Assembly: GCF_963921235.1 (NCBI RefSeq)
Contig: NC_086097.1
Coordinates: 92,258,001 to 92,322,000, forward strand
DNA: 64,000 bases
Source: Mobula hypostoma
Lineage: Eukaryota
Reading direction: 5' to 3'
Shown: positions 7,401 to 61,664 of the stretch, piece after piece
How positions within the stretch are numbered: position 1 is the first letter of the stretch
Layout: every line of letters starts with the position of its first letter
Position numbers and translations under genes: made by a program
Notes under the pieces: model-generated
What the model was told of the DNA's origin: nothing
What the model saw: only the letters and a program-made list of their open reading frames with translations
Database searches by the model: none

Positions 7401-8549
7401 AAGGGAACACAATTAGCTTTATAAAGATCCTTATATTTTTTAGTAATTATAATACCTAAATATCTAAAAGAGTCTGAAACTTTAAAAGGAGTATTATCAT
7501 ATATAGAGACAGAATCATTTAAAGGAAACAATTCACTTTTACTAAAATTTATTTAATATCCTGAAAAACCTCCAAATTTATTAAATAATTTTAGCAAGGC
7601 AGGAATGGATTCGTCAGGGTTAGATATATAAACCAATAAATCATCGGCATAAAGAGAGGCCTTATGCATGGTCTCATTTACAAAGATTCCATGGATATTT
7701 TTAGCCTCACGAAGAGCAACAGCAAGGGGTTCTAATATTAAATTAAACAACAAAGGACTTAATGGACAGCCTTGCCTTGTCCCCCATGAAAGCTGAAAAA
7801 AAGGAGACCTACAATTGTTAGTGACAACAGTAACAATAGGGGCTTTATATATCATTTTAATCCAATTATTAAAATTAACACTAAAGCCAAATTTCTCTAA
7901 AACATTGAATAAATATTTCCATTCGACTCAGTCGAACGCTTTTTCAACATCCAAAGATACAACACATTGTGGAATTTTAGAAGAGGATGAATATATAATG
8001 TTAAATAGTCTCTGAACATTTGAAAAGGAATAGCGACCCTTTATAAAGCTTGTTTGATCTTTACAAATAATTTTACCCAAAATATTCTCCAACCGATTGG
8101 CCATTATCTTTGACAAAATCTTAGCGTCAACATTCAGTAATGAAATAGTTCTATTTGAAGCACAGTCAGTAGGGTCTTTATCTTTTTTAAGAATTAAAGA
8201 AATAGAGGCCTCAAAAAGTAGAGGGTAATTCACCTTTCACAAAAGAATCCTTAAACATTTCCAACATATACGGAGAGAGTAACTTTCCAAATTTTTTATA
8301 AAATTCTACGGGATAGCCATCAAGTCCTGAGGACTTACCAGATTGCATTGAAAAAAATAGCTTTATGAATTTCAGCTTCAGTAATTTGAGCATCGAGAAT
8401 CTTTTGATCCTCAGCCGAGATTTTAGGAAAAACAATCTTTCATAAAAAAGCAAACAACAGGAATTCTGCAGACGCTGGAAATTCAAGCAACACACATCAA
8501 AGTTGCTGGTGAACGCAGCAGGCCAAGCAGCATCTATAGGAAGAGGCGC

Positions 8550-8585
8550 AGTCGACGTTTCAGGCCGAGACCCTTCGTCAGGACT
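8550..8585 (-). ncRNA. Minimal type-I hammerhead ribozyme motif (antisense arm)
   Basis: Reverse complement reads AGTC-CTGACGA-AGGGTCTCGGCCT-GAAAC-GTC-GACT. Confidence 0.75.
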
Positions 8586-8621
8586 AGTCCTGACGAAGGG
8601 TCTCGGCCTGAAACGTCGACT
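8586..8621 (+). ncRNA. Minimal type-I hammerhead ribozyme motif
   Basis: Stem I AGTC/GACT, core CTGACGA, stem II GGGT-CTCG-GCCT, GAAAC, GTC cleavage triplet. Confidence 0.75.
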
Positions 8622-10705
8622 GCACCTCTTCCTACAGATGCTGCTTGGCCTGCTGCGTTCACCAGCAACTTTCGTAAAAAAGCATTCATTTTAGAGGAAT
8701 CTAACGGACATTGAGATTTATACAGCTCAGCATAAAAGTCTTGAAAAATCTTATTAATTTCTTCATATTCCTGAGCTAAGGTACCATCTTTCCTACGAAT
8801 TTTCATGATTTGCCTTTTGGCTGCAGCCATTTTTAATTGAGATGCAAGCAGTTTATTATTTTTAACTCCAGACATATAAAATTGGCTCTTTAACTTAAGC
8901 AAATAACCTTCAATGGGATGAGTTAATAACAGGTTATATTGTGATTGAACTTCCACCCTTTGTTTAAATAAATCAGTATTGGGGGAAATTGCATAAATAT
9001 TATCTAAATCTTTAATTTGTTTTGAAATTCTATCTAATTCTGCTTTAGTTTTTTTTTAAGTTTAGCTGAATAAGAAATAATCTGACTGCGTAAAAATGCT
9101 TTAAATGTATCCCATATAACTAATTTAGACATACCCCCTATGTCATTAAAAAGAAAAAATTCTTTTATCTGGGTTTCAATGAAAGTGACAAAGTCAGAGT
9201 TTTGCAATAATGTCTGAGACATGCGCCAAGGTGGGCGGGCAAGAGTGACATCATCAAATTCAAAAGACAAACTCAGAGGTGCATGATCAGATATAGCAAT
9301 AGCGTCATATTCGCAGGTTTTAACACTAGACAAGAAGCGGGGATCGACGATAATAAAATCGATCCTCGAATATTTTTTATAAACGTGTGAGAAGAAAGAA
9401 TATTCTCTATTGTCGGGAAGAAGATACCTCCACAAATCAATCAACCCAAAATCAATCAAAAAGGAATTAATAAATGACACGGATCGATTTGGAAGTCGCT
9501 GATTGGTTGAGCTCTTATCAATCATAGGATTTAAACAACAATTAAAATCCCCACCCATTATGAGCATATATTCATTTAAGTCAGGCAGTAAAGCAAATAC
9601 CTTTTTAAAAAAAGAAGGATCATCTAAGTTAGGACCATACAAATTAACCAAAACAACTTTTCTGTTACAGATTGTTCCTTTAACAATTAAAAATTTACCA
9701 TTAGAATCTGACTCAATATCCTCTTGAATAAATATATTAGGTTTAATGAAAATAGACACGCCTTTTGTTTTACTCTGAGAAGTAGAGTGGAATTGCAAAC
9801 CATTCCACCATCTAAAAAATCTGTTTTGATCTCCTGCCCTGATATGTGTCTCTTGAGCAAAAATTATGTCAGGTTGGAATCAGTTAATAATTTTAAAAGT
9901 CTTTTTTCGTTTAATAGGATGATTCCAACCACATACATTCCAACTTATTATATTAATCCGTTTGAACAGCATACTATAATTTCATTCTACTTTATACATG
10001 CACAAAGCACATACCAATGCAGGATAATCAAAGATGGTGGTGATGAAGAATACAACCAAATAAAAAACACACATGCTCCGAACCACCCAATGGGAAAAAA
10101 CTAACTCTAAACCCACCCACCCACACCCAGAAACCCGAAAAAGGCAAGCGATCTACGATAGAATTCAAAGCTGCTGACTGCTCTGTCTGTGTTTTCTTTC
10201 CCTCCCCCCAATTAGTAAAAAAGTAGAGTGACCTTGTGAAAAAGACAATAAAGTCTCAGGAAAAAAAGGTATTTACATTCCATCGACCGATAAACAAGAA
10301 AGAACCAAAATAATGTTATCTCTTAGAGAGAAAAACCAGTGCCATGTTTAAGTTTAATATTAATTCCCTAAAAAAGCTTTAAATTCAATTATAAAATGTT
10401 ATAAAAGAACAGAAAAATATATAAAAAGCCCTATTAGTAGGAAAAACTACCAATTAGCTTCAAAGTATTAAATTAAAGGAACAAATCGCCTTATCTTCTT
10501 CCCTCAGTCATAAAATGTCCAGAGATCATTTGAGCAGAGATACTTAAACCATAAATCTTTCCAAAGGAAAACCGATAATATGCAACAAAGAACAACTCCC
10601 TATGTTCTTTAATTAGTCTCTTGATGAAATATACAAGTGACCTTCATAAATCTTCTTTCCAAAATGCGAATAATATACAAATAGCCAAACAGCCTTTCAG
10701 ATGGA

Positions 10706-11527
10706 TCATTCAACAGCAGTGTCGGTGACAGCAGCAGGGAAAGCCTGAACAAAATCCACTGCAGCTTTTGGATCAAAAGAAGTACGAGGAGGAGAATTAG
10801 GAGGGAAAATTTTAAGTCTTGTCGGATACCTCAGAGATGCGAAAAGATTCTTATCATGTGCTTGTTTCATTACCAGGGCAAATTTTGATCTCTCTTGGAT
10901 AATCTTCGTAGAAGCGGAGCTCAGATTCCATAAATCTAAAAACTCTCTGTTTTCTTGCCTGTCGTATTATTTGTTCTTTAATTTTAAAGTGATGGAAGCA
11001 AACCAGAACAGATCTTGGTTTACTAGAGTCCTTCGATTTCGAGATAAACGCCCTGTGTGCCCTTTCTATAGCAGGCGGCTTTGATAGAATGGTAGGAAAT
11101 AAAGTGTGGAAAAGCCTACCAAAGTAAGCCATTAGATCTCCACCTTCAGCTCTTTCCTGCAGCCCAACAATTCTTATATTCCTTTGTCGAGACCTAGTTT
11201 CCAGTCTATAATCTTATTTTGATATCTTTCCAAACGAGTTGTAGCTTCAGACAGCTTTTGCTTAGTTATCTTCAATTCCTCTTCGTGTGAAGTAACTTGA
11301 GTTTCCAGGTCTTTAAGTTTTCCCAGAAATGACTTCATTTCATTACTATTCTTTTCCAGTTGGTCTTTAATTGATCCATTCTGATCCTTAATTGAATTCA
11401 GTGTCCGAACAATATCTTCAGCCCACGATGGCATTTCATCAGATCTTTCCTTTTGCACCTTTCCTTTCCCATTACCTTTATCACCAGGTTCAGGTAAATT
11501 CTTCCCATTTCTTGTAGACATAGACAT
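10706..11527 (-). pseudogene. L1 ORF1 (coiled coil plus RRM, Transposase_22-like), frameshifted
   Basis: Heptad-rich N-terminus (LKDLETQV...LERYQNKIID), then NIRIVGL-like segment and IERAHR...KPRSVLVCFHHFKIKEQI...FYEDY. Confidence 0.85.
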
Positions 11528-12464
11528 ATTGGTCACCCTCAAGAGACAACAAGTAAAAATTTTAAATTCAAAGCTTAAAGTAGGGGGAAAGAAAGAAAAC
11601 TAAGAGCAGCAGAAAAATACTGCTACTTCATTGTTATCAAAGATGTGATAACAGCACATTTGGAAAGCGGTGAAATTATCGGACAAAGTCAGCATGGATT
11701 TGTGAAAGGAAAATCATGTCTGACAAATCTCATAGAATTTTTTTGAGCATGTAACTAGTAGAGTGGATAGGGGAGAACCAGTGGATGTGGTATATTTGGA
11801 TTTTCAAAAGGTTTTTGACAAGGTCCCACACAGGAGATTAGTGTGCAAACTTAAAGCACACAGTATTGGGGGTAAGGTATTGATGTGGATAGAGTTGGCA
11901 GACAGGAAGCAAAGAGTGGGAATAAATGGGACCTTTTCAGAATGGCAGGCAGTGACTAGTGGGGTACTGCAAGGCTCAGTGCTGGGACCCCAGTTGTTTA
12001 CAATATATATTAATGACTTAGATGAGGGAATTAAATGCAGCATCTCCAAGTCTGCGGATGATATGAAGCTGGGCGGCAGTGTTAGCTGTGAGGAGGATGC
12101 TAAGAGGATGCAGGGTGACTTGGATAGGTTAGGTGAGTGGGCAAATTCATGGCAGATGCAATTTAATGTGGATAAATGTGAGGTTATCCACTTTGGTGGC
12201 AAAATCAGGAAAACAGATTATTATTTGAATGGTGGCCGATCAGGAAAAGGGGAGGTGCAACGAGACCTGGGTGTCATTGTACACCAGTCATTGAAAGTGG
12301 GCATGCAGGTACAGCAGGCGGTGAAAAAGGCAAATGGTATGCTGGCATTTATAGCAAGAGGATTTGAGTACAGGAGCAGGGAGGTACTACTGCAGTTGTA
12401 CAAGGCCTTGGTGAGACCACAACTGGAGTACTGTGTGCAATTTTGGTCCCCTAATCTGAGGAAA

Positions 12465-12588
12465 ACACAAAATAATCTGCAGATGCTGGGGTCAAAGCAA
12501 CACTCACAACACGCTGGAGGAACTCAGCAGGTCGGGCAGCATTCCACAGATGCTGCCCGACCTGCTGCGTTCCTCCAGTGTGTTGTGA
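12465..12588. mobile_element. 124-bp Penelope-tail hairpin insertion in CR1
   Basis: Inverted arms of about 39 bp (about 12504-12542 and 12550-12588) with a 7-nt spacer. TSD CTGAGGAAA at 12456-12464 and 12589-12597. Confidence 0.85.
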
Positions 12589-13659
12589 CTGAGGAAAGAC
12601 ATCCCTGCCATAGAGGGAGTGCAAAGAAGGTTCACCAGATTGATTCCTGGGATGACAGGACTTTCATATGATGAAAGACTGGATTGACTAGGCTTATACT
12701 CGTTGGAATTTAGAAGATTGAGGGGGGATCTTATTGAAACATATAAAATCCTAAAAGGATTGGACAGGCTAGATGCAGGAAGATTGTTCCCGATGTTGGG
12801 GAAGTCCAGAACAAGGGGTCACAGTTTGAGGATTAAGGGGAAGCCTTTTAGGACCGAGATTAGGAAAAACTTCTTCACACAAAGAGTGGTGAATCTATGG
12901 AATTCTCTGCCACAGGAAACAGTTGAGGCCAGTTCATTGGCCATATTTAAGAGGGAGTTAGATATGGCCCTTGTGGCTAAAGGGATCAGGGGATATGGAG
13001 AGAAGGCTGGTACAGGGTTCTGAGTTGGATGATCAGCCATGATCATACTGAATGGCGGTGCAGCCTCGAAGGGCCGAATGGCCTACTCCTACACCTATTT
13101 TCTATGTTTCTATGTCAAAACATTCCAGAACTGTGAAGTTTTATCTGTTGCACCAAGAGTCAAAGGCTTCATCTAGGGGGAAGATGGGGAGGGTGAGGGG
13201 TGGGGGGTGGAGGGGTTGGAGCGAGGAGGCTCTGAATTTAAATGAAGAAAATTATGAATGGAACGTTGTTCATTGAGATTGGAGAACTTAATTTAAAGAG
13301 TTGATTGGGTAATTAATTCCAAGCCTTCTCCCCATCATCAATTCAGTCAAGATTGATGGGGAAAATGCCAGAGTCTGTGTTACTGAGCATTTGGAGGAGA
13401 GTGGTCACATCAGGCAATATCAACGGGGATTCATGCTTGACAAAGCTGTTGGAATTTCCTGAGCATGTAACTCTGTAGTATTGATGAGGGTGAGCTAGTG
13501 AATGTTGCGTTCCTTCTGAACCTGCTTGACGCTTCAGAAAACTTCTGATAAATTCCCTGTGGGATTAGAGGTAATTTATTGATATTGCTAGAGAGCTGGA
13601 AAACAGTAAGAGGTAAAAGGCCAGACTGAATAGAAAAGGAGAGAGAGAGGGATTTTTTC

Positions 13660-14008
13660 TATTATAACCGGAAGGAGAAATTGATATTCATGCCATGAGG
13701 TTGGATTCCTATGGTCTCACCTGCCTATCACTTCCCCAGGTTCCCCTCCTCCTTCCCTTTCTTCTATGGTCTGCTCTCCTCTCCTATCAGATTCCTTCTT
13801 CTCCAGCACTTCACATTTTCCATACACTTGGCTTCACCTATCACCTTCCAGCTAGCCTCCTTCCCCTCTCCCCCCCCCCACCTTTTTAATTCTGGCGACT
13901 TCTCCCTTCCTTTTCAGTCCTGAAGAAGGGTCTCAGCCCGAAACGTCGACTACTTATTTATTTTCATAGATGCTGCCTGACCTGCTGAGTTCCTCCAGCA
14001 TTTTGTTG
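13660..14008 (+). mobile_element. Older Penelope-like 3' tail with a short inverted GIY-YIG-end fragment at its left side
   Basis: Pyrimidine-rich UTR, hammerhead motif, GATGCTGCCTGACCTGCTGAGTTCCTCCAGC tail. 13665-13705 is the reverse complement of the endonuclease end (QPHGMNINFS). Confidence 0.7.
13916..13951 (+). ncRNA. Minimal type-I hammerhead ribozyme motif
   Basis: AGTC-CTGAAGA-AGGGTCTCAGCCC-GAAAC-GTC-GACT. Confidence 0.7.
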
Positions 14009-14129
14009 TTGAATAGGATTAAGTGCTTTATTCCCCTCCCACCAAGTCTCAGACAACAACTAGGGTGGAAAATAGAATGGAATTTATAGCAAAATGACAG
14101 AAGTAACTTTAAATAGTATTATATCCAAC

Positions 14130-14725
14130 ATGAAGTATAAAAAGTCCAGCTGAAGCGGTAAACCCTGAAATTGACAGCAGATTGGAGTACAGGAAAAGAA
14201 GATGAAGGGATCGTTTAGAAAGGAGAAAATTGGGAATGAGAGTAAGCTTGTAGAGAATGTAAAAACTGAGTTTAAAAGTTTCCGTAGGTATGTGAAGAGA
14301 AAAAAAAGATTAGTGTCGGTCTTCACAGTCAAAAGCTTGGAAATTTATAGTAGGCAACAAAAAGGTAGAACAATTAAATACATATTGACAATATAAATAA
14401 CATTTCTGAGAGGTTTAGGAACACAGTCTAGTGAGTTGGAGGAAGTAAATGAAATCAGTATTAGCAGGGAAATATGTTGAGTAAATTAAAAGGATTACAG
14501 ACCAATAAGCGCCAAGGCCCAAGAGCTTGTATTTCAGAATATCCAGTTAACACTGAACACCCCAGATACAGTAAATGCTTTGATGATCATTTTCCTACAT
14601 TCTTTATACTCTGGAGCCATCATTGGATTGAAACCCCAATAGTTAAAAAATGAGGTGGGAAGAAAGCCAGGAATTATGGATCAATTCACCTGAGATTAGT
14701 GATGGGAAAATGGCAGAGTCCATGT
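14130..14725 (+). mobile_element. Old CR1 ORF2 fragment
   Basis: KLVENVKTEFKSFRRYVKRKK, homologous to the 4846-5265 CR1 region. Confidence 0.65.
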
Positions 14726-14989
14726 AAAAGAGCACTTCATCATCCCCTTGGAAGTGATGAATTACTGATTAAGTCCCCAGAACTAGACCCCAATACCTCA
14801 TCGTGCAAATAGATCCCTGATTTTCTCACTTGCAGATGTCAGTCAGTTCAGATTGGCAACATTTCCTACACAGTCATCATCAGCACCGATGCACCACAAG
14901 GCTGGGAGCCTAGCCCCTGCTCTACTTTGCTTTATACTAATGATTGCAAGTACTGTTCCAATGCCATATTTAAGTTTGCTGGTGTTGTT

Positions 14990-16520
14990 TCATATGACAG
15001 GTGTTTTTCTCTTCGCACTTCTAGTTGTTGTTTGCCAAGCCACTCCTCCAACTTGTGGCTGCATCGATGGGCCGTCTCTCAGCAAAGCCGTCTCAGGTCT
15101 TGGTGACAGGGCATGTTTGGACCAGAAGGAGGATGTCCTGGGTTGGGGCACCACAGGGGCAAGCTGGGGTTTGTTGGGCCTCCCCATCGGTGTAGTGTTT
15201 ACGCTGTTTTGTCATGTCAACATCTGAGTCAATTTGCACCTGTCCAGTTTTTTTTCTAGTAGCTGTAGCAAAGCTCGGGAGGAAGGAGGTGGGGTCATCG
15301 ATCAGATCTCTGCTGGGGGTGTGGGGGGGGTGAAGACACATATTGGTGTGCCAGTATTGGCGCTATTCAGTTTGTTCATCATAGGAATCAAGGTTTTTCA
15401 AGTCGTAGAAAGGTTTTCAAGATCTGAGTTGGGAAATTTGAGGAGTATTTTCGATGAGTTTATGAACTGGAACATTATTGAGCATATTTTGGATACACTT
15501 GTAAGTTTTCCTGAAGCTACTCTTCTACAGATCTCCGGGGGTACTATTCCACTCATTGTTGGGAGACAATGGACAGGTGTGGATCTTAGGGCTGCTGAGA
15601 TTATCTTCATAGAAGTATGGAACAGTGTATCGATGATGCTTGTGTGAACACTTCTCTCCCAGGTGGGTGCGCAATATTCAGTGACTGAGAAACACAGCGC
15701 CAGGCTAGATGTTCATAGGACTGACTGGTTAGCACCCCATTTGGTTCCTTGTATCTTCCTAATCATGGTCTTTCTGAATTTTAGTTTCTTTGCAACATTT
15801 TGAAGATGGACCTTGAAGAGAGTTTGATTTAGTGTGACTCCTAAGTATGTTGGGTGTGGATCGTTGGGTAGTTGTTTGTCATTTAATTTGATATCAAGTT
15901 TAAGTTTGATTAGTCGGTTCGCCAGATGAAATATGGAAGTTACTTTGTTGTTGATGTTCATATTTAGGTACCACTTTGAGAAGTAATTGGACAGAGAGTT
16001 GATATCTTGGGTAAGGTTTTTTCAATGGATTTGACATAGTTCGATTGGAAGGCAATGGCCCAGTCATCAGCATATCCAAATTAAGCAGATTTGGTTTCAG
16101 GGAGGTCACTGACGTACAGACTGACCAAGGTTGAAACCAGAACTGACTTTTGCAGGACGCCATTGCAGAGTTTCATAGTGAGACTAGTGTCACTTTCTAG
16201 GCAGGTGAAGAAAGGACAAGTGCCTGCCATTCTGGGGAGGAGACATAGGATCTTTTTACATGGGATGATTCGGGCTAGTTTTAACATTAAGCCTTATTTT
16301 TAATATTTAATATTTGAAATCCAGGGAGTGGGAACGCAGAATCAAATATCGCTGTGACGATTGTACATTCTAGTACCAATTGTTTGGCGACAATAAAGTA
16401 AAGTATAGTTCCAAATGGTGTCGTATGCAGCAGAAAAGTTGCTCCAGTTTTCTTTTTTAGTTCAAAGCCTGATTCGATGTATGATGTGAGTGCGGGAACT
16501 TGATCATTGGTATTGTGGTG
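14990..16520 (-). mobile_element. 5'-truncated Vingi/Ingi-like (I-group) LINE, decayed RT and C-terminus
   Basis: AAYDTIW, YVSDLPET..FGYADD, PTYLGVTL, WGANQSVL.TSSLALCFSVTEYCAPTW, LRSTP..LP..SGIVPP, terminal CPCG...CP. Confidence 0.65.
16296..16407 (+). mobile_element. Short Rex1/Babar 3'-UTR insertion inside the Vingi-like element
   Basis: Matches the reverse complement of the 3' end of the 29962-31540 element (TTCTAGTACCAATTGTTTGG..ACAATAAAGTA). Confidence 0.75.
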
Positions 16521-16529
16521 TTGTTTGAA

Positions 16530-17790
16530 ATAATCTTGCTCACTTCACTGGTATTGGCCAAATCAAAGGTGGTATTGAATCGGCTTATAAGAGGGAGATT
16601 GAAAATCTGGTGAAATGATACCACAACCTTTCAGTCAACATTGGCATTAGGGGATTAGATGTAGAGTGGGTCAGTAACTTTAAATTCCTTGCCATTATCA
16701 TTTCAGAGGATCTGTCCTGGGACCAGCACACAAGTGCCATCACAAAGGCATGGCAGCACCTCTACATCCTTAGAAGGTTGTGCAAATTGAGCATGTTATC
16801 TAAAACTTTGAAAAACTTATATAGGTACACAGTGGGGAGTATCCTAACTGGTTGCATCATGGCTTGGTATGGAAAGCCCAAGAATGGAAAGTCTTACAAA
16901 AACTAGTGGATAAAGCCCTCCCCACCACTGAGCAGATGTATAAGGAGCACTGCCACAAGAAAGCAACATCCATCATCAATGACCCCCACCATCCAGGCCA
17001 TGCTCTCTTCTCAGTCCTACCATCAGGAAGAAGGTATAGGAGCCTTAGGTCCCACACCAGGTTCAGGAACAATTATTACCCTTCGGCCATCAGGGTCCTG
17101 AACCAGCGAGGATAACTTCATTCACCTCAACACTGAAATGACCTCACGACCTATGGCCACACTTTCAAGGACTCTACATCTCAAGTTCACGTCACCATCA
17201 TCATGTGCTGTGTTGTATGACATGAGTGATCATGGTCTTTCCATGACCGTGATTGTTCTTGGCAAATTTTTCTACGCAAGTGGTTTGCCATTGCCTTCTT
17301 CTGGGCAGTGTCTTTACAAGATGGGTGACCCCAGCCGTTATCAATACTCTTCAGAGATTACCTGCTTGGCGTCAGTGGTCAGTGGTCGCATAACCAGGAC
17401 TTGTGATATGCACCAGCTGCTCCCATAGCTTCATGTGACCCTGACTGTGCAATTGGGGGTGGGGGAGGGGAACAGTTGGACTAATCAGGTGCTACACCTT
17501 GCCCAAGGGTGACCCGCAGGCTAGCAGAGGGAAGTAGCACCTCACACCTCCTTTGGTAGAGACGTATCTCCACCCCGCTACCCTCATGTTCACGGTATTA
17601 CTTTTTTTTTGTATTTGCATAGTTTGTCTTCTTTTGCATGTTTATTGTTTGTCAGTCTTTGTGTGTAGTTTTCCCATTGATTCTGTTACGTTCCTTTGTT
17701 GCCTTGTGAATGCCTTCAAGGAAATTATTCTCAGGGTAGTATATGGAGGTATATACACAATTTGATGATAAATTTACTTTGAACTTTGAG
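16530..17790 (+). mobile_element. Rex1/Babar-like LINE 3' portion (interrupted at 17192-17583)
   Basis: FKFL..IISEDLSW, SIINDPHHPGHALFSVLPSGRRYRSL, tail (TTGAACT)n. Confidence 0.75.
17192..17583 (-). mobile_element. Non-autonomous RTE-related short element (BovB/Bov-A-like 3' tail)
   Basis: Minus strand has AGAAGGCAATGGCAAACCACT and a (TGA)n-like tail. TSD TCA(A/T)GTTCACG at 17181-17191 and 17584-17594. Confidence 0.7.
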
Positions 17791-18508
17791 TATTCAGAAA
17801 ACATTTGATAAAATCTATATAGTATTAGGGGTAATTTACTGAAATAAATAGAGAATTGGTTGTGTCATTAGAAAAACAGTACGAATAAAAGTGGTTTTCT
17901 CCCCACAGACCCCAGACCAGAATGGAGTTGGTTCTGCACTGTACACAATATATATTACTGGTTTTTGACCAAGGAACTAAATGTAATATCTCAAGGGGTG
18001 TAAACAGCGCAAAGTCAGATGGGAGGATGAGCCTTGAGGTTGCAGAGAACTCTATGTCAGACAGTACAGTGTGGATAAATGGGAGGTTATCCACTTTTGG
18101 TGGCGACATCAGGAAGGCGGGTTATCTGTCAGGTGATAGATTGGGAATGGGGAAGTGCAACAAGACCGATGTACTTGTAAACCCGTCGCTGAAGTGTGCA
18201 AATGCAGCAGGCAGATAAAGCAGAAGATGATATGCCAGTTTTCATAGCAAGAAAATTCAAATTCATTGTTGTTATAGATATACAGATGTATAAATACCAT
18301 GAAAATTGACTACTTACAGCAAGACAGTATATTACATGGACAAACACAAGTTAACAAAGTTGATTTAACATATTTGAATGGGTATCCATCATTAAAGACC
18401 CCCATCACCCAGGTCACTTTTCTCATTGCTACCATCAGGAAGGAGATACAGAAGCCTGAAGGCACACACTCAATGATTCAGTAACAGCTTCTTCCCCTCT
18501 GCCATCTG

Positions 18509-18732
18509 GGCACGTGGCTAAGTGGTTAAGGTGTTCGTCTGGTTACCTCAAGGTTGCTAGTTCGAACCTCAGCTGTGGCAGCATGTTTGTGTCCTTCAGC
18601 AAGGCACTTAATCACACATTGCTCTAGTCTGTGCGAGGAGTGGTGCCCCACACAGACTTCCAATCTGCGCCTTGTAAGGCATGAAAATGCCTGACGCAGG
18701 CCTCTCATGGTCTGAGTCGACGTTCCCTCCCC
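18509..18732 (+). mobile_element. tRNA-derived SINE with CORE-like segment
   Basis: A box TGGCTAAGTGG, B box GTTCGAACC, TGTGTCCTTCAGCAAGGCACTTAA, (TCCCC)n tail. 16-bp TSD TCCCCTCTGCCATCTG at 18493-18508 and 18733-18748. Confidence 0.85.
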
Positions 18733-22262: not shown

Positions 22263-22296
22263 AGTGGGGGGAATTGATGAGAAAGTGGAAAGAATA

Positions 22297-23969: not shown

Positions 23970-24392
23970 TAGGAAGTGCTGCAAACACTCAAGTCAGGCA
24001 GCATCTGTGGACAGGAGAATTTGGTACTGAGTCTTGAAGGCTTCTTATAGCTCTCTTGAGATATCATAATTGGCCAATTTGACATTGGCTTTTGTTTAAA
24101 TCTTCCCTAGCACACCCTGATCTGCTATTTGCAACACATTCTTTGTCGCAAGTCATCTCCTCAGCAGCCCTGGCTCCAAAATACCACAGGAAAGTTAGTC
24201 CATCCATCCCCTCCCTAATATCTTCAACTTCCAATGAACTTGTTTGTCCTCTGTCCCCGTTCTGATGGAAGGTCTTGGAGCTCCTATGTTAGCCAGCTCT
24301 CCCCTTCTGTCTATAGATGCTAGCTCACCTGTGGAGTTTTAAGCTACTTTGTTTTATTTTCTTTTAGATTTCCAGCATCTGCAGCCTTTTGT
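23970..24392. mobile_element. Old pair of inverted Penelope-like tails
   Basis: CAGGCAGCATCTGTGGA at left; ATAGATGCTAGCTCACCTG...AGATTTCCAGCATCTGCAG at right. Confidence 0.5.
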
Positions 24393-31540: not shown

Positions 31541-31925
31541 GAATTTTCTCCCTGTTTAGAAAATAATCTATGCCTTTAATCTTGGGATCCAACGCTAAAC
31601 TGATTTTCCCAATCTACCTGCATATTGAAATCCTCCATGACTATCATAACATTGCCCTTTTTACATACCTTTTTTACCTCCCATTGTAATTTGTATCCCA
31701 TACCTTGGCTACTGTTTGAAGGCCTGTATAACTCCCATCAGGGTCTTTTTACTCCTGCAGTTTCTTAGCCCAACCCACAAGGATTCTACATCTCCTGATC
31801 CAATGTCATCCCTTTCTAAAGATTTGATTTCTTTTTTTTAAACTAAAAAAGTCACTCCACAACCTCTGCCCACCCGCCTGTCCTTTTGATACAATATACA
31901 TCCTTGGATGTTAAGCTCCCAACTA

Positions 31926-33527
31926 CAAACCCCATTTCCAGAAAAGTTGGGATATTTTCCAACATGCAATAAAAACAAAAATCTGTGATATGTTAATTCA
32001 CGTGAACTTTTATTTATCTGACAAAAGTACAAAGAAAAGATTTTCGATAGTTTTACTGACCAACTTAATTGTATTTTGTAAATATACAGAAATTTAGAAT
32101 TTGATGGCTGCAACACACTCAACAAAAGTTGGGACAGAGTTAAAATAAGATTGAAAAGTGTACAGAATATTCAAGTAACACCAGTTTGGAAGACTCCACA
32201 TTAAGCAGGCTAATTGGTAGCAGGTGAGGTATCATGACTGGGTATAAAAGTAGCATCCATCAAAGGCTAAGTCTTTGCAAGCAAGGATGGGTCATGGCTC
32301 ACCCCTTTGTGCCAAAATTCATGAGAGAATTGTTAGTCAGTTCAAAAGGAACATTTCTCAACGCAAGATTGCAGAGATTTTAGGTCTTTCAACATCTACA
32401 GTACATAATATTGTAAAAAGATTCAGAGAATTAGAGACATCTCAGTGCATAAAGGGCAAGGTCGGAAACCACCGGTGAATGCGAGTGATCTTCGAGCCCT
32501 CAGGCGGCACTGCCTAAGAAACCATCATGTTACTGTGACAATTATAGCCACCTGGGCTCGGGAATACTTCTGAAAACCATTGTTACTCAACACAGTCTGT
32601 CGCTGCATCCAGAAATGCAACTTGAAGCTGTATTATGCAAGGAGAAGCCATACATCAACTCTATGCAGAAACGCCAGTGAGTTCTCTGGGCCCGAGCTCA
32701 TCTCAGATGGACTGAAAGACTGTGGAACAGTGTACTGTGGTCAGATGAGTCCACATTTCAGCTAGTTTTTGGAAAAAATGGGCGTCGAGTTCTCCATGCC
32801 AAAGATGAAAATGACCATCCAGATTGTTATCAGCGAAAGGTGCAAAAGCCAGCATCTGTGATGGTATGGGGGTGCATCAGTGCCCACGGCATGGGTGAGT
32901 TGCATGTATGTGAAGGTACAATTGACTCTGAGGTGTATATTAGGATTTTAGAGAGACATATGTTGCCATCAAGGCGACGTCTCTTCCCAGGACGTCCATG
33001 CTTATTTCAGCTGGACAATGCCAGACCACATTCTGCACGGGCTACAACAGCGTGGCTTTGTAGACACAGAGTGCGTGTGCTTGACTGGCCTGCTGCCAGT
33101 CCAGATCTATCTCCTATTGAAAATGTATGGCGCATCATGAAGAGAAGAATCAGACAACGGAGACCACAGACTGTTGAGCAGCTGAAGTCTTATATCAAGC
33201 AAGAATGGACAAAATTTCCAATTGCAAATCTACTACAATTAGTATCCTCAGTTCCAAAACAATTAAAAACTGTTATTAAAAGGAAAGGTGATGTAACACA
33301 ATGGTAAACATGCCTCTGTCCCAACTTTTGTTGAATGTGTTACAGCCATCAAATTCTAAATTTGTGTATGTTTACAAAATACAATTAAGTTGGTCAGTAA
33401 AACTATTGAAAATCTTTTCTTTGTACTTTTGTCAGTTAAATAAAGGTTCACGTGAAGTAACATATCACAGATTTTTGTCTTTATTGCATTTTGGAAAATA
33501 TCCCAACTTTTCTGGAAATGGGGTTTG
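31926..33527 (+). mobile_element. Full-length Tc1 DNA transposon (about 1.6 kb) with about 210-bp IR/DR-type TIRs
   Basis: TA-CAAACCCCATTTCCAGAAAAGTTGGGA ... TCCCAACTTTTCTGGAAATGGGGTTTG-TA. Inner repeat AAAAGTTGGGAC. Confidence 0.95.
32287..33307 (+). pseudogene. Tc1 transposase (DD34E), disrupted by frameshifts and a stop
   Basis: HTH (SQRKIAEILGLSTSTVHNIVKRF), WSDES, VMVWGCI, FQLDNARPH, SPDLSPIENVW. 34 residues counted between the second D and E. Confidence 0.9.
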
Positions 33528-34600
33528 TATAATCTCCTTTCAGTCATGACTCAGTGATGCTCATAACATCGTACCTGCCGCTCTCTAACTGCGCTACAAG
33601 ATCATCTACCTTATTCCATATACTATGTGCATTCAAATATAACACCTGCAATCCTGTGTTCATCACCCTTTTCGATTTTGCCCCATGTTATATTTCAACT
33701 CATCCCAGTGAATTCAACTTTGTCCTTTCATCCACCTGTCCTTCCTCACAGTCTCACTACACACTGCATCTGTTGCACACCAACTGCTTCATCCTCAGCC
33801 CTATCAACTCGGTTCCCAACCCTGGCCGAATTAGTTTAAACCATCCCAGCAGCTCTAGTGAACCTGCCACAATGACATTGGTCCCCTTCGGGTTCAGGTG
33901 GAACCTGTCCTTGTTGTGCAGGTCAGGCCTTCTCCACAGGAAATCCCAATGATCCGGAAATCAGCCCCACATTCAACTGCCAAATCATCCTATTCTTATT
34001 CTCACAGGCATGTCCAGAGACTATTACCCCAGAGGTCCTGCTTTTCAAATTTCTACTTAACTCACTATATTCTTTCTTCAGGACCTCATCCCTTTTCATA
34101 CCCATGTTGTTGGTACCAGTATGTACCACGACTTCTCGCTGTTCCACTCCCTCTTTGGAATGCTGTGGACCCAGTCAGACACATCTCGGACCCTGCCACC
34201 TGGGAGGCAACATACCATCCAGGTGTCTCTTTCACGTCCACAGATTCTCCTGTCTGCTCCTCAGCTATGGAATCCCCTATCACTACTGCACTCCTCTTCT
34301 CCCCCTTCCTTTCTGAGCATCAGAACTAGGCTGAGTACCAGAGACCCAGTCGCTGTGGCTTCCCCCAGTAGGTCGGCCCTCCTACAGTATTCAAAGTGTT
34401 ATTATTATTATTGTTATTAAGGGGAACTTGCTCCAGGGGTACTCTTCTCTGGCTGTCCACCTACCTGCCTCCTGCTACTCAGGAATTGCTGCATCCCTAT
34501 AGCTCTTATCTATTCTCCCATATGAGTGGAATATCAGCCAGATGCAGCTCGATACACTTCATACAGATGTAGTTATCAGGGAGACTGGAGGTCTCCCAGT

Positions 34601-35205
34601 TAGGATTGCCAACTTATTCACTTCCAAATAAGGGACAAAAGTAGCAGTCAAATATGGGACATTTGTGTTTACCCCGAGAAAGACTACCATGACCATGAAG
34701 CCTTGTGTGGGCACCTGTGTGCACATGTGTGACGTGCGCATACGTGATATGCGCATACGTGACATGCGCATACGTGACATGCGCATACGTGACGTGCGCA
34801 TGTGTGTACATGCTGTTTTATTTCTACAAATCAGTTTTGGCTTAACCTTCCTGATTCTGTGAAGTGAAACTACACTGTACATACATTATTTCTACTTTAT
34901 ATAGGCTGTGTATTTATCACATCATTCTTGCTTTTACTATATGTTAGTGTGATTTTAGGTTTTATGTGTTATTTGGTATGATTTGGTAGGTTATTTTTTG
35001 GGTCTGGGAACACTCAAAAATTTTTCCCATATAAATTAATGGTAATTGCTTCTTCGCTTTATGCCATTTTGGCTTACGAACAGTTTCATAGGAACGCTCT
35101 ACCTTAGCAGGGGAAATACGGGACAAGGGCGGTCCCGTATAGGACAAACCAATTTAGCCCAATATACGGGATGTCCCGGCTAATACAGGACAGTTGGCAA
35201 CCCTG
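34601..35205. mobile_element. hAT-type MITE (605 bp)
   Basis: TIRs TAGGATTGCCAACT / AGTTGGCAACCCTG. 8-bp TSD CTCCCAGT at 34593-34600 and 35206-35213. Confidence 0.9.
34728..34802. repeat. 15-bp tandem repeat (GTGACRTGCGCATAC) x about 5
   Basis: Directly visible; it generates the spurious MRIRD/YAHVT repeat ORFs. Confidence 0.9.
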
Positions 35206-36285
35206 CTCCCAGTGTTCCCACCTCTGACATGAAGAACATACCACTAACCCTGGATACATTCTCAATGCATTAGCTATGTCCTAATAGACAAAAAAAAGAG
35301 AAAAAAAACTTACTTCAGACCTCCGCCTGTTCTCCCAAATCCTGCCACTCCGGCAACATCTGTTTCCACGACGGCTACTCTGTTGTCACCTTGCATTTTC
35401 TCCCCCATTTGGTCCTTGCTAAGTTACTAACAACCCAAGCAACCACCTGCTCCGCACTCAAGTTGTGACAGGCCTTGTTCGCTTTTGAAAACTGGCACGT
35501 AAACTCCACGAGGAACTGTCACCAACCCTCTCTGCCAAAAGAAATTGTAGTTCTTTTTCCCTCTGTAAATAGCTGAAAGAAAAGGAATATCAAGTGTGTA
35601 TATGCCAGCAAATTTGTTAATTGATTTACTTTGAAACTTTCAGTCAGCCTCCTTGTAACTTGTTTAGAATTAAGCAATATCTGCGTTATTTCCGGTTTAA
35701 GGTGTATGCTTGGAACCACTACTGCGTTGGTGCTCCAAAGATGTTTGCAAAGTGACAGCATAACTTCTACCTATTTGCATCCAGGTAGAACAGTAGCATT
35801 CCAGAAGTTTATTTAAGTGCAAGTAATGAGTATAAGATATGGTAATGTCTTTTAATACAATGGTGTACCAGGCACTGCTTGAGATTTACTACCTTCAATA
35901 AGCGAGGCTCTACCTTAATTTTGCCCTTGCAAACAACAACACAGAAGAACCTATAAACACAACTCTTTTAGCCTTTTTCCTATTACTTGCATCCCTCCAT
36001 GTTACTTTAGCAACCCATCGACCTCAATCCCTAGCTGTCTTGGCATTGCCACTGTCTTACCAATTCCCACCTTATAAAAGGAAAGTATTATTTCCTTTAC
36101 AAATCCAAAATGGACGATCTCCCATTTGCCCGCACCGAAATCTATTTATCATAGTTTTCCCTATTTGTTTAATCAGTTGATAACTGTTCAAAATTTAATG
36201 CTCTCGCCTACATTGCTTTTTTTGCAACATCAACCAACTTGAGTATGCAACTTTCTACTCAATTATCTATATCATATATAAATAC

Positions 36286-36456
36286 GTTACATTGTTCGTC
36301 CATCATTGACGTCGATGAGGACCTCGACACCATTATGATGGTGTCGAGACTAGGGCGTGATTTGGATTTAAGTGAGGGAGAGTTGCGCAGCGTCAGCCTC
36401 ACTCTCTCTTCCCAATTCCCATCTGGGTCCAGTGGCAAGACAGAGTCTAGACGGTG
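36286..36456 (-). mobile_element. RTE-type 3' tail fragment with 11-bp stem-loop
   Basis: CTCGACACCAT-TATG-ATGGTGTCGAG hairpin. AATAC duplicated on both sides within an old antisense LINE. Confidence 0.55.
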
Positions 36457-37191
36457 AATACAGTGAACAATTGAAACCCCGGTTCAGATCCATGCAGGAC
36501 ATTATGTTCATATCTTACCACAGCTGTTATCCCTATCTACCTATAAACCTTAAACATCTCCTGGTGCTTAGCAAATTTCTTAAATGAACCAGCAATCTGC
36601 TTTCAGTTCCATGAGTTTTAACTTTTGGTAGCTCCATTACACAAGACTTAATCAAACACCTTCTGAAAATATGCTCCAAATATCCACAGGCAGCCACCAT
36701 TGAAAATGAAAGAAGTGCAGATGCTGGAAATCTGAAAGGAGAAATGACGTGAAGCTCCTCAGCAACGAATGTGTGTGGAAAGACAAACAGAGTTAACGTA
36801 ACTTTGAGTTACACAAACTAAATGCTTCATCAGCATCTCAGCTCGGAACATCAACTTTCCACGATGCTGCCTGACATGCTGAGTTCTTCCAGCATTTTGT
36901 ATGTGTTACTCCAGATATCCAGTATCTACAAAATCTCTTGTGTTTACATAACCTCTGTTCTTCAGACTGCAGTGTTGACACTGTTGCTCTTTCTACAGAT
37001 GCCCGAACTGTTGAGTGTTTTCAACATTTTGTATTATTACCCCTGTCCACTCCTTTAGTCTGCTCCAAAAAGAGTGTGTATATAATGGTACGCAAACACG
37101 AGGAATTCTGCAGATGCTGGAAATTCAAGCAACACACATCAAACTTGCTGGTGAACGCAGCAGGTCGGGCAGCATCTCTAGGAAGAGGTAC

Positions 37192-37227
37192 AGTCGACGT
37201 TTCAGGCCAGGACCCTTCGTCAGGACT
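37192..37227 (-). ncRNA. Minimal type-I hammerhead ribozyme motif (left arm)
   Basis: Reverse complement reads AGTC-CTGACGA-AGGGTCCTGGCCT-GAAAC-GTC-GACT. Confidence 0.72.
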
Positions 37228-37522
37228 AACTGAAAGAAGAGCTAGTAAGAGATTTGAAAGTGGGAGGGGGAGGGAGAGATCCAAAATGATAGGAGAAGAC
37301 AGGACGGGGAGGGATGGAGCCAAGAGCTGGACAGGTGATTGGCAAAGGGGAAGGGGATATGAGAGGATCATGGGACAGGAGGCCCAGGCAGAAGGAAAAG
37401 AGGGAGGGGGGGAAACCCAGAGGATGGGCAAGGGGTATAGTCAGAGGGACAGAGGGAGAGAAAGGAGAGTGAGAGAAAGAACATGCGTAATAACGCACGG
37501 GGTAAGAGGGGGAGTTGGGGCA

Positions 37523-38946
37523 TTAGCGGAAGTTAGAGAAGTCGATGTTCATGCCATCAGGTTGGAGGCTACCCAGACGGAATATAAGGTGTTGTTCCTC
37601 CAACCTGAGTGTGGCTTCATCTTTACAGTAGAGGAGGCCGTGGATAGACATATCAGAATGGGAATGGGATGTGGAATTAAAATACGTGGCCACTGGGAGA
37701 TCCTGCTTTCTCTAGCGGACAGAGCGTAGATATTCAGCAAAACGATCTGCCAGTCTGCATCGGGTCTCACCAATATATAGAAGGCCACATCGGGAGGACC
37801 AGATGCAGTATATCACCCCAGCCGACTCACAAGTGAAGTGACACCTCACCTGGAAGGACTGTTTGGGGCCCTGAATGGTGGTAAGGGAGGAAGTGTAAGG
37901 GCATGTGTAGCACTTGTTCCGCTTACAAGGATAAGTGCCAGGAGGGAGATCAGTGGGGAGGGATGGGGGGGACGAATGGACAAGGGAGTCGTGTTGGGAG
38001 CGATCCCTGTGGAAAGCGGGGGGGGGGAAGGGGGGGAGGGAAAGATGTGCTTAGTGGTGGAATCCCGTTGGAGGTGGCGGAAGTTACGGAAAATAATATG
38101 TTGGACCCGGAGGCTGGTGGGGTGGTAGGTGAGGACCAGGGGAACCCTATTCCTAGTGGGGTGGCGGGAGGGTGGAGTGAGAGCAGATGTGCGTGAAATG
38201 GGGGAGATGTGTTTGAGAGCAGAGTTGATAGTGGAGGAAGGGAAGCCCCTTTCTTTAAAAAAGGAGGACATCTCCCTCGTCCTGGAATGAAAAGCCTCAT
38301 CCTGAGAGCAGATGCGGCGGAGAACGAGGAATTGCGAGAAGGGGATAGCATTTTTGCAAGAGACAGGGTGAGAAGAGGAATAGTCCAGATAGCTGTGAGA
38401 GTCAGTAGGCTTATAGTAGACATCAGTAGATAAGCTGTCTCCAGAAATAGAGACAGAAAGATCTAGAAAGGGGAGGGAGGTGTCGGAAATGGACCAGGTA
38501 AACTTGAGGGCAGGGTGAAAGTTGGAGGCAAAGTTAATAAAGTCAACGAGCTCAGCATGCGTGCAGGAAGCAGCGCCAATGCAGTTGTCGATGCAGCGAA
38601 GGAAAAGTGGGGGACAGATACCAGAATAGGTTCGGAACATGGATTGTTCCACAAAGCCAACAAAAAGACTGGTATAGCTAGGACCCATTCAGGTGCCCAT
38701 AGCTACACCTTTAGTTTGGAGGAAGTGGGAGGAGCCAAAGGAGAAATTATTAAGAGTAAGGACTAATTCCGCTAGGCGGAGTAGAGTGGTGGTAGAGGGG
38801 AACTGATTAGGTCTGGAATCCAAAAAGAAGCGGAGAGCTTTGAGACCTTCCTGGTGGGGGATGGAAGTATATTGGGACTGGACATCCATTGTGAAAATAA
38901 ATCGGTGGGGGCCAGGGAACTTAAAATCATCAAAATGTTTAAGAGC
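37523..38946 (-). pseudogene. Penelope-like RT plus GIY-YIG endonuclease, left arm (catalytic YIDD mutated to CIDN; frameshifts)
   Basis: FTMDVQSQYTSI, GVAMGT, FLRCIDNC, PLVLTYHP. Confidence 0.88.
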
Positions 38947-40364
38947 GCTCTTAAACTTTTCGATGACTTTAAATTCCCTGGCCCCCACCGCTTTATTTTC
39001 ACCATGGATGTCCAGTCCCAATATACTTCCATTCCCCATCTGGAAGGTCTCAAAGCTCTCCGCTTCTTTTTGGATTCCAGACCTAACCAGTTCCCCTCTA
39101 CCACTACTCTACTCCGCCTAGCGGAATTAGTCCTTACTCTTAATAATTTCTCCTTTGGCTCCTCCCACTTCCTCCAAACTAAAGGTGTAGCTATGGGCAC
39201 CCGTATGGGTCCTAGCTATGCCTGCCTTTTTGTTGGCTTTGTAGAACAATCTAAGTTCCAAACCTATTCTGGTATCTGCCCCCCACTTTTCCTTCGCTAC
39301 ATCGACGACTGCATTGGCGCTGCTTCCTGCACGCATGCTGAGCTCGTTGACTTTATTAACTTTGCCTCCAACTTTCACCCTGCCCTCAAGTTTACCTGGT
39401 CCATTTCCGACACCTCCCTCCCCTTTCTAGATCTTTCTGTCTCTATTTCTGGAGACAGCTTATCTACTGACGTCTACTGTAAGCCTACTGACTCTCACAG
39501 CTATCTGGACTATTCCTCTTCTCACCCTGTCTCTTGCAAAAATGCCATCCCCTTCTCGCAATTCCTCCATCTCCGCCTCATCTGCTCTCAGGATGAGGCT
39601 TTTCATTCCAGGACGAGGGAGATGTCCTCCTTCTTTAAAGAAAGGGGCTTCCCTTCCTCCACCATCAACTCTGCTCTCAAACGTATCTCCCCCATTTCAC
39701 GCACATCTGCTCTCAAATCCTCCCGCCACCCCACTAGGAATAGGGTTCCCCTGGTCCTCACCTACCACCCCACCAGCCTCCGGGTCCAACTTATTATTCT
39801 CCGTAACTTCCGCCACCTCCAACGGGATCCCACCACTAAGCACATCTTTCCCTCCCCCTCCCCTCTGCTTTCCGCAGGGATCGCTCCCTACACGACTCCC
39901 TTGTCCATTCGTCACCCCCCCTATCCCTCCCCACTGATCTCCCTCCTGGCACTTATCCTTGTAAGCGGAACAAGTGCTACACATGCCCTTACACTTCCTC
40001 CCTTACCACCATTCAGGGCCCCAGACAGTCCTTCCAGGTGAGGCGACACTTCACCTGTGAGTCGGCTGGGGTGATATACTGCGTCCGGTGCTCCCGATGT
40101 GGCCTTCTATATATTGGCGAGATCCGACGCAGACTGGGAGAGTGTTTTGCTGAACACCTACGCTCTGTCCGCCAGAGAAAGCAGGATCTCCTAATGGCCA
40201 CACATTTTAATTTCACATCCCATTCCCATTCTGACATGTCTATCCACGGCCTCCTCTACTGTAAAGATGAAGGCACACTCAGGTTGGAGGAACAACACCT
40301 TATATTCCGTCTGGGTAGCCTCCAATCTGATGGCATGAACATTGACTTCTCTAACTTCCGCTAA
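38947..40364 (+). pseudogene. Penelope-like RT, Cys linker and GIY-YIG endonuclease, right arm (5'-truncated, one frameshift near 39860)
   Basis: FTMDV, GVAMGTRMGPSYA, FLRYIDD, PFLDL, PCKRNKCYTC linker, GVIYCVRCSRCGLLYIGE, HF...H, GMN. Confidence 0.92.
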
Positions 40365-40634
40365 TGCCCCACCGCCCCCTCGTACCCCATCTTTTATATA
40401 CACACATTCTTTCTCTCAGTCTCCTTTTTCTCCCTCTGTCCCTCTGACTATATTCCCTGCCCATCCTCTGGGTTTTCCCCCCGGGCCTCCTGTCCCATGA
40501 TCCTCTCATATCCCCTTTGCCTATCACCTGTCCAGCTCTTGGCTCCATCCCTTCCCCTCCTGTCTTCTCCTATCATTTTGGATCTCCCCCTCCCCCTCCC
40601 ACTCTTAAATCTCTTACTAGCTCTTCCTTCAGTT

Positions 40635-40670
40635 AGTCCTGACGAAGGGTCTCGGCCTGAAACGTCGACT
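40635..40670 (+). ncRNA. Minimal type-I hammerhead ribozyme motif (right arm); predicted cut after 40666
   Basis: AGTC-CTGACGA-AGGGTCTCGGCCT-GAAAC-GTC-GACT. Confidence 0.75.
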
Positions 40671-42279
40671 GTACATCTTCCTAGAGATGCTGCCTGACCT
40701 GCTGCGTTCACCAGCAACTTTGATGTGTGTTGCTTGTATATAATGGTAGCTGATCTGAAATCTCCCTCATTCTACCACTCTTGAAAGAAACTGTCGATCC
40801 CACAGGGTCATTAATATAGAAAGTTTTTCCATCACCTCTTTACTAACCCAGTTCTTCCTGCGTGAATCTTTAGGAATGTTTGCAGGAGTTATTAGAAGAA
40901 CATCAACCTAACTCTTAGCACAACCAGCATTCAATAGCACAAGCTCATCTAGAATTCTGTGCAGCCTTTTGTGCACTGTAAACCTAATCATTCAGAATGC
41001 GCTGAACAGATGTTTTTAAAAAAAGGGTTTCAGTAACTTAACATTAGAGATGGCCATGTAATTTAAACTGAAAGCATTTCTGAAATGAAGGAATTAGTGA
41101 TAAATTGATTTGAATGGATTGGGACATAGACTTGGCCTATGGAAATTTTGCCCTTCAGACTGTAAGCCATTTACTTGTAGGCTATAATTAACCAAATGAA
41201 TTGTAGCTCTGTAAATATCAGTCAAGCAGAACAATGCTGCTATAAGTTCCACAGAGACATCTTAACATGGTTCACTTTTGGTGAGAGTTGCTGCATCTCC
41301 CTAGATGAGTTTAAAACCAAAGAGAAAATCACTTCTTGTTGCTTGACTGCACCCCTCTAAATATTGATTCAATGTGCCATTGTGAAAGCTCTGTGCTCAA
41401 TACAGTCATCTTGGATATCCAATAGTCAGAGAAGACAACGCTAAATAACATACTTTCATATCTGGGTCTCCCCGAATTTCTTTCCATAAAACCATTCATT
41501 GGTCCAACACTTAGTCCTCTTTTAAACAAATTTTGTTGAATTCCACTTCAACCAGACTTGATTATGACACAGAAGCCGGCCATTTAACCAGGTCAATTTT
41601 ACCGCCTGCACGGCCACATTGTCAATCCCATTTCCCTGAACCATTGCAATTTATTTTCTTTCACCTGCTTGTCAACTCTTGTTTGATTCTTTTTGCTATT
41701 TACCTGCACAAGGCTGTCATTTACAGTGCCCAGTTAACTTTTTCCAGGGAAGGGGATTAAAGGGAGTTAAAAGAGTGAGGGTGTATGTTTAAGGCGACAG
41801 GTGAAAGATTTAAAAGGGGCCTGAGGGGCATCTTCTTCACACAGAGGACGGTGTATGCATCAAATGAGTTGTCAGAGAAAGTGATGCAACAATTAAAATG
41901 CATTAGGATAGGTACATGGTAAGGGGGGGGCGGATTTAGAGGGATACGGGCCAAATAGGGCTATAGCACCATTGCCAGCATTACGATGGGGTCTGTTTCT
42001 GTGCTGTATTGCTCAAAGACTCTACGACACCACGTCCTTGTGATGCGAGAGGAAGCTGGAGCACCCGAGGGTAACTCATGCGAGCTTGGCACTAACTTTA
42101 CCAGAGGTCAGGGTTGAACCTAGATGGCTGGAGTTGCGATACAGCAGCTCCACTAACTGTACCACTGTGCCTCCTGTGAGAAATTGCCCAATTCTGCGAA
42201 TCTGCCATTTTCATCCTTGGCATTCGCCTTCTACAGAGCCATCTGGAAAGCACCAAGCTTGCAAAGCCCTTCCTTACAG

Positions 42280-61661: not shown

Positions 61662-61664
61662 CCC

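Follow-up and report, generated by a model that had tools for sequence, protein, structure and literature searches.

Penelope-like elements (PLEs) are described with an adjacent inverted and 5'-truncated copy, with a tail of 30-40 bp often at one end only, and the origin of these tandem and inverted structures has been called undefined (PMC8557442). Inverted pseudo-long terminal repeats (pseudo-LTRs) with target site duplications (TSDs) of 8-10 bp, a 31-bp tail on one repeat and palindromes at the junctions were described for elements such as Pen2a_Av, and self-priming on an antisense template was proposed for them (PMC3846280); inverted Penelope copies are also mentioned, with no mechanism given in the available text, in PMC2377424 and PMC3681739. 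The protein of PAc, a Poseidon element of Anolis, cleaves and extends both strands in vitro, uses two internal reverse transcription start sites that bound the tail and is predicted to dimerize, and the available text leaves the later integration steps unvalidated (PMC11167929). L1 twin priming also gives internal duplications, in 17% of inverted insertions and with a median length of 22 bp (10.1101/2024.08.27.596794), and for L1 both this form of twin priming and inverted insertions made from two templates have been reported (10.1101/2024.08.27.596794, PMC11702581, PMC10191854). Here we describe three inverted (fold-back) insertions of a Neptune-type PLE in a 64,000-nt stretch of the Mobula hypostoma genome (NCBI RefSeq assembly GCF_963921235.1, contig NC_086097.1, positions 92,258,001 to 92,322,000), hereafter the window, which is vertebrate DNA rich in repeats. 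The questions touched are the origin of the tandem and inverted PLE structures (PMC8557442) and the later steps of integration (PMC11167929). A literature search confined to non-subscription papers recovered no paper stating a double-primed model for inverted PLE insertions.

All three fold-backs (numbered by position, Table 1) are real, and each is a single, TSD-flanked insertion of a Neptune-type PLE whose two arms come from one source. The original prediction of three TSD-flanked fold-backs was confirmed, with TSDs of 15 (one mismatch), 9 and 14 bp for fold-backs 1, 2 and 3. The arms of all three pairs lie head-to-head, with 3' ends outward and truncated 5' ends meeting in the centre, and the inserts between the TSDs measure, in order of size, about 124, 217 and 3644 bp. 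Among 3000 random boundary pairs drawn within the window, an exact repeat of at least 9 bp was found in 0.10%, and repeats of at least 14 bp, or of at least 15 bp with one mismatch, in none; the observed TSD lengths are far above chance expectation. When the fold-back 2 insert and one TSD copy were removed, the host aligned gaplessly to a CR1-like paralogue near position 46400. The same removal at fold-back 1 left 43 residues between L1 anchors taken from the PDB, as compared to 42 in human L1 ORF2p, and a second native 15-bp copy would give 48; a protein search for relatives of this L1-like host yielded 0 of 144 candidates. Removal of the insert and one TSD copy thus restores these two hosts, and each fold-back is a single event at a staggered cut 9-15 bp wide.

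The fold-back architecture itself is already known for PLEs, and these structures are ordinary PLE insertions in a new member family. Similar to the canonical endonuclease-containing (EN+) PLE unit, they have head-to-head inverted arms, a tail on one arm and a palindromic junction. The tail, an optional 30-40 bp in the published unit, was present on one arm in 3/3 cases (32-47 nt), and TSDs of 8-10 bp there compare with 9-15 bp here. In contrast to the canonical unit, the fold-backs contain no direct pseudo-LTR tandem, each arm is a simple 3' end with 5' truncation, the two being of nearly equal length, and the element belongs to a Neptune-like clade in a cartilaginous fish. A miniature inverted-repeat DNA transposon was rejected as an identity for these structures, whose ends are offset by 32-47 nt and which have no fixed length.

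Contigs of four public sequencing runs (X1, X5, X15 and X16) were aligned to the long arm of fold-back 3; the values reported from them are based on 24 of 8675 loose-end entries, 15 of 2258 joints and 40 of 718 variable sites. Loose ends with mixed AT-rich flanks piled up at 37093/37094, with 350 and 419 contigs ending at these two positions in X1, 384 and 427 in X5, and 281 ending at 37094 in X15 (none among the entries considered for X16). In all three fold-backs one arm carries this family 3' end and the other lacks 47, 39-42 and 32-35 nt, respectively. The predicted asymmetry of one complete arm and one lacking roughly 35-50 nt thus held, but among these entries the complete end is most commonly 37093/37094 and not 37091, and the single copy ending at 50006, used to define it, is itself 1-2 nt short of this end. 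Ends of local copies scatter over a few bases, between 37091 and the position that corresponds to 37095, and the presumed 3' terminus probably represents an internal site of initiation rather than the end of the RNA. The short arms end at three different offsets spread over about 15 nt; their end positions did not appear among the loose ends considered, which therefore speak neither for nor against a truncation bias. The overlap of the short arm with the TSD, predicted for two cases, was seen in both, with CTTT (4 nt) in fold-back 1 and TG (2 nt) in fold-back 3, and was 0 nt in fold-back 2; the probability of a summed overlap of at least 6 nt was 0.4-1.1% under a simple null, in a post hoc test. 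In run X5, joints from 37152 to 37101 and from 37164 to 37118 step back by about 50 nt in the tail region, perhaps reflecting re-initiation or short tandem tails, and one further X5 joint (38614 to 37128) resembles a partial tandem with a tail-less end.

How the two arms meet was more informative than the palindromes to which the original prediction had pointed. The self-complementary centres CTAG and AGCGCT are not informative because any spacer-less fold-back is self-complementary by construction, and the element itself supplies only TA (8585-8586) in fold-back 1, where TTAGTCC is found in the other young local copies, namely the single copy and the two arms of the 3.6-kb insertion, and CG (38946-38947) in fold-back 3, where 28 X1 contigs continuing past 38947 have T in place of the C in the window. 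Of the proposed joining at short palindromic microhomology there remains an overlap, of 2 nt only and absent from fold-back 2. In fold-backs 1 and 3 both arms end on one and the same template base, and in fold-back 2 their stops are 7 nt apart. In the latter, the tail is found only on the long arm and the 7 additional 5' nucleotides, in sense orientation, only on the short arm; this spacer, TCCACAG, is element sequence, with identical letters before the common anchor in the copy at 24005 (minus strand) and similar letters in other copies. Neither arm is nested in the other, and therefore neither is a plain copy of the other. A simple snap-back of complementary DNA (cDNA) cannot yield this junction, which supports two-ended priming over plain copying back.

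Priming from both target ends on one RNA, followed by reciprocal joining, best fits these observations, and we regard it as narrowly probable. In this scheme, the GIY-YIG nuclease would make a staggered cut of 9-15 bp, as read from the TSDs, and both 3' overhangs may then prime reverse transcription, the first at the far end of the tail and the second 32-47 nt further upstream, within or immediately past a predicted stem-loop rich in GU, often aided by 2-4 nt of pairing with the RNA. Arm lengths suggest that both cDNAs would derive from one RNA, or from RNAs with a common 5' end, and would stop at essentially the same base. Their 3' ends could join via 0-2 nt of complementarity and each could template the second strand of the other, giving a head-to-head duplicate of one 3' segment with a one-sided tail, a process that would resemble L1 twin priming with near-total internal duplication. 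The original proposal that both nicks prime at or near the RNA 3' end is retained as far as two-ended priming is concerned; the priming itself is probably internal. Offset joints in related copies (see below) and a non-duplicated inverted piece at 13608-13705 suggest that equal arms are not the sole outcome. That PLEs routinely prime both target ends on one RNA, with the cDNAs priming each other's second strand, is a tentative generalization that we would not yet expect to hold. If true, head-to-head duplication with a one-sided tail would be the normal completion of the PLE cycle, and would tie the two-start-site, two-strand biochemistry to the long-unexplained inverted PLE structures. The double-priming model is reasonable and was largely anticipated by the 2024 biochemistry; what is added here are the near-equal 5' stops and a junction test (nesting and spacer strand) with one supporting case. 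The logic of this test, namely whether the tail-less arm is nested and which strand the spacer represents, would separate two-ended priming from copying back, and the abundance of the family offers many young copies to which it may be applied.

The scheme can be compared with two described systems, PAc and L1. As for PAc, both strands would be nicked and extended, two start sites would bound the tail, and the targets are AT-rich; the PAc hammerhead upstream of the tail has a hammerhead-like motif as its counterpart here. In its available text, PMC11167929 does not tie two-strand extension to inverted insertions. The PAc start sites are AC-rich and reportedly non-homologous to the target, whereas here the tail is GU-rich, the second site is spread over 15 nt and microhomology is seen in 2/3 cases. 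Similar to L1 twin priming, the second target end would use microhomology to prime internally, the TSD is retained and the two cDNAs would be end-joined. In L1, however, the second primer lands beside the end of the first cDNA and duplications are short (median 22 bp), whereas here it would land 32-47 nt away from the first one, the duplication spans almost the entire insert and poly(A) is absent. In each of the three pairs one 3' segment is present twice and no upstream segment is inverted, and a standard L1-type twin priming product was rejected on this ground; the contrast with L1 drawn in the original prediction is nevertheless one of degree, since L1 too makes internal duplications.

Several observations weigh against two-ended priming or limit its support. 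There are only three events, and their junctions favour it modestly. As first written, double priming leaves the same-base stops unexplained and needs either a single RNA 5' end common to both cDNAs or a step of copying back; by a rough inference, two independent cDNAs stopping at the same base in a 1.85-kb arm would be rare, and copying back from one cDNA explains both zero-spacer centres at least as simply. None of the three centres lies at the predicted hammerhead cut, which leaves a shared RNA 5' end without an explained source. Since 17% of positions offer a 2-nt palindromic overlap, its presence at 2/2 spacer-less centres is weak evidence. The tail asymmetry is real, but equals the published one-sided PLE tail, and the short-arm microhomology is equally compatible with annealing of a copy-back strand. 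Folding of the tail region was no better than that of shuffled sequences (z -1.25 to 0.19), and the in vitro data on PAc come from a Poseidon element with AC-rich start sites, as opposed to the GU-rich tail here. At 17 polymorphic sites, selected because part of the family departs from the left arm there, the arms of fold-back 3 agree at 9, differ at 5 and are gapped at 3 (5/14 covered sites differ). The right-arm letters at 38230 and 38806 are those near fixation in runs X15 and X16, a pattern that two templates or later change could produce. Finally, the upstream L1 anchor used at fold-back 1 is weak (E 1-3).

The strongest alternative is copying back (snap-back or U-turn), in which one tail-primed cDNA stalls and is copied back by the reverse transcriptase (RT) or a host polymerase, the copy ending 32-47 nt short and annealing to the other target end, with any central asymmetry introduced by later deletion at the apex. 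Equal arm lengths and identical arms come free with this mechanism (2/3 centres are spacer-less), the same TSD and short-arm microhomology are predicted, and hairpin-derived fold-backs are known at L1-induced ends (PMC11702581). Its loop, however, should be about 3 nt long and antisense on the tail-bearing strand, and the observed spacers are 0, 0 and 7 nt, the last in sense; the mechanism would have to include an extra deletion at 12465 and, at the remaining centres, a turn without a loop. We consider copying back unlikely. In a further alternative, an antisense template primes itself at a built-in palindrome before or during integration, as proposed for rotifer PLEs from palindromes at their inverted junctions (PMC3846280). 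The three centres here fall at unrelated template positions (at the hammerhead edge, about 20 nt past the hammerhead and inside the RT), and the natural palindrome is at most 2 nt, making this mechanism improbable.

A shared template for the two arms was also examined at the level of individual letters. In another alternative, two RNAs in a dimeric particle, one for each target end, would yield arms that are later equalised by gene conversion or deletion. Arms from different subfamilies, which the original prediction had named as evidence against itself, were not seen within pairs; fold-back 2 as a whole derives from a subfamily related to, but different from, that of fold-backs 1 and 3. Identity between arms is 86/88 in fold-back 1 and 37/39 in fold-back 2, both pairs having common letters not seen in other local copies, and fold-back 3 shows 97 mismatches in 1787 aligned columns (5.4%) and six gaps. 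In 698 three-way columns comparing the arms of fold-back 3 with the single copy, 50 letters were common to both arms and 23 and 21 were private; the many common letters and equal private change indicate arms of the same age and subfamily. Of 23 listed sites at which the left arm has a rare letter (differing from at least 88% of the X1 depth), 22 are covered by the right arm, which has the family letter at 19 and the rare letter at 3. Divergence between these arms (37126-38947) is higher in the outer 0.75 kb (53/749, 7%) than in the inner 1.05 kb (44/1038, 4%), possibly due to partial gene conversion, a signal that is weak without CpG sites, where the difference is small (36/691 vs. 34/970). 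This gradient, the 5/14 differing polymorphic sites, two opposite-strand offset joints in related copies (37186/37254 in X1 and 37456/38189 in X15, 2 among the joints considered) and the occurrence of two-template insertions in L1 (PMC11702581) would be in line with two RNAs. Stop points within 0-7 nt of each other in 3/3 cases are not predicted by it, however, and the rare letters common to both arms and the small non-CpG difference point the other way, and we find two RNAs very doubtful. Two separate insertions at one site, which yield transposable element dimers in Drosophila but with a target copy expected at the junction (PMC5932611) that is not present here, or an assembly fold-back artefact, with which the lack of any listed run contig spanning a centre of these loci would agree but for which near-identical arms without TSDs would be expected in place of big arms with 5.4% divergence, six gaps and equal private change, are highly implausible.

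Core letters and stems of a hammerhead-like motif were found upstream of the tail in five local copies, both by pattern and by fold; an Rfam search returned zero hammerhead matches for it. In EN+ PLEs such a ribozyme motif lies in the terminal repeat, which recurs as a pseudo-LTR at the 5' end of the ORF and makes the tail an internal site; the window holds no full-length copy of the element. The predicted cut site was placed by hammerhead numbering, and joining at this site was ruled out (0/3 centres). In X16, a loose end at 37227 (185 contigs), at the hammerhead edge, was not counted as a 5' stop, its consensus resembling another subfamily. The second, short-arm end falls in or just after the GU-rich predicted stem-loop of the tail.

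The element that produced the fold-backs was identified from the protein remnant in the short arm of fold-back 3. A protein search (371 matches) gave shark proteins as the best named relatives of its RT, with 69% identity to a Chiloscyllium punctatum protein over the whole query; most top RT proteins were 50-69% identical over nearly the full length, and some are annotated with GIY-YIG. The C-terminal piece aligns with those RT and GIY-YIG proteins, in the RT-then-GIY-YIG order of EN+ PLEs. A Pfam scan of this piece gave no direct match, and the domain call is based on the alignment with homologues, in which C84, C87, H122 and H128 (alignment A1) are invariant, matching the CCHH motif with two cysteines between GIY and YIG by which EN+ PLEs are defined (PMC8557442). 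The nuclease is preceded by C-x4-C-x2-C, in line with the CX2-5CxxC linker between RT and endonuclease of the Neptune clade; linker cysteines mark Neptune and Nematis and are absent in Penelope and Poseidon (PMC8557442), and one preprint reports only Neptune and Poseidon among its vertebrate PLEs (10.64898/2026.07.22.740005). We assign the element to the Neptune-type EN+ PLEs, the clade name being taken from the linker. The family is very abundant, with 244,983 contigs of one run matching one arm of fold-back 3. Searches of viral contigs gave zero relatives of the RT and 0 loci with the tail motif, for which a single bacterial match in metagenome contigs was due to chance and another came from a bacterial metagenome-assembled genome.

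Table 1. Coordinates of the fold-back insertions, the single copy and the features encoded by the element (positions in the window; ORF, open reading frame; UTR, untranslated region).
Feature	Position	Strand	Remarks
Fold-back 1, whole	8437-8683		inside L1-like ORF2
Fold-back 1 TSD, left copy CTTTCATAAAAAAGC	8437..8451	+	15 bp
Fold-back 1 long arm	8452..8586	-	tail and minimal hammerhead motif
Fold-back 1 short arm	8585..8672	+	lacks 47 nt; CTTT common with TSD
Type I minimal hammerhead-like motif	8586..8621	+	pattern and fold; fold-back 1 centre at 5' base of stem I
Fold-back 1 TSD, right copy CTTTCGTAAAAAAGC	8669..8683	+	14/15 vs. left copy, 1 mismatch
Fold-back 2, whole	12456-12597		inside CR1-like RT remnant
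Fold-back 2 TSD, left copy CTGAGGAAA	12456..12464	+	9 bp, 9/9 match
Fold-back 2 long arm with tail	12462/12465-12542	-	last 2-3 A of TSD may be common to arm
Fold-back 2 short arm	12543..12588	+	lacks 39-42 nt of tail; reaches 7 nt further 5' than long arm
Fold-back 2 unpaired spacer TCCACAG	12543..12549	+	7 nt; sense-strand element sequence, part of short arm
Fold-back 2 TSD, right copy	12589..12597	+	
Fold-back 3, whole	37077-40748		
Fold-back 3 TSD, left copy TGTATATAATGGTA	37077..37090	+	14 bp exact; 16-17 bp with one indel
Fold-back 3 long arm	37091/37094-38947	-	~1.85 kb; tail, hammerhead-like motif, 3' UTR, GIY-YIG, C-terminal RT
Hammerhead-like motif, fold-back 3 long arm	37192-37227	-	
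Fold-back 3 short arm	38946..40736	+	~1.79 kb; lacks 32-35 nt; TG common with TSD
PLE RT core and thumb remnant	38950..39837	+	5'-truncated; 69% identity to Chiloscyllium protein; Pfam RVT_1 E 0.0014, below cut-off
C-x4-C-x2-C linker and GIY-YIG endonuclease with CCHH residues	39840..40364	+	separate frame from RT; alignment with GIY-YIG-bearing homologues
Fold-back 3 TSD, right copy	40735..40748	+	14/14 match
Single 5'-truncated copy with tail	49241..50006	+	older subfamily than fold-back 3
TSD of single copy AAGGTTTGG	49232-49240 and 50007-50015		9 bp

Other PLE fragments in the window were not counted as fold-backs. At 13608-14009, a minus-strand piece with the ORF end of a related subfamily (13664-13705 matches 40321-40365) adjoins a plus-strand piece with 3' UTR and hammerhead-like motif but no tail; no arm-to-arm homology and no TSD were found for these pieces, which represent a classical twin-priming layout or an old rearrangement. 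An old, degenerate head-to-head pair at 23974-24388 carries its tail on the right arm; its arms, about 290 nt apart, show borderline similarity (score 34 vs. a null maximum of 33). Just upstream of the 3.6-kb fold-back, 36716-37039 holds a group of older fragments of PLE ends, among them one whose full tail ends at 36945, and the similarity of the opposite-strand pair at 36716-36945 was not significant. Elements of other classes in the window include a Tc1/mariner-like transposon (31924-33529) with 216-nt terminal inverted repeats that are 95% alike, TA at both ends and a DDE_3 match, and an LTR retroelement (59684-63989) whose 292-nt repeats are 98% alike and whose gag-like region gave SCAN and zinc-knuckle matches.

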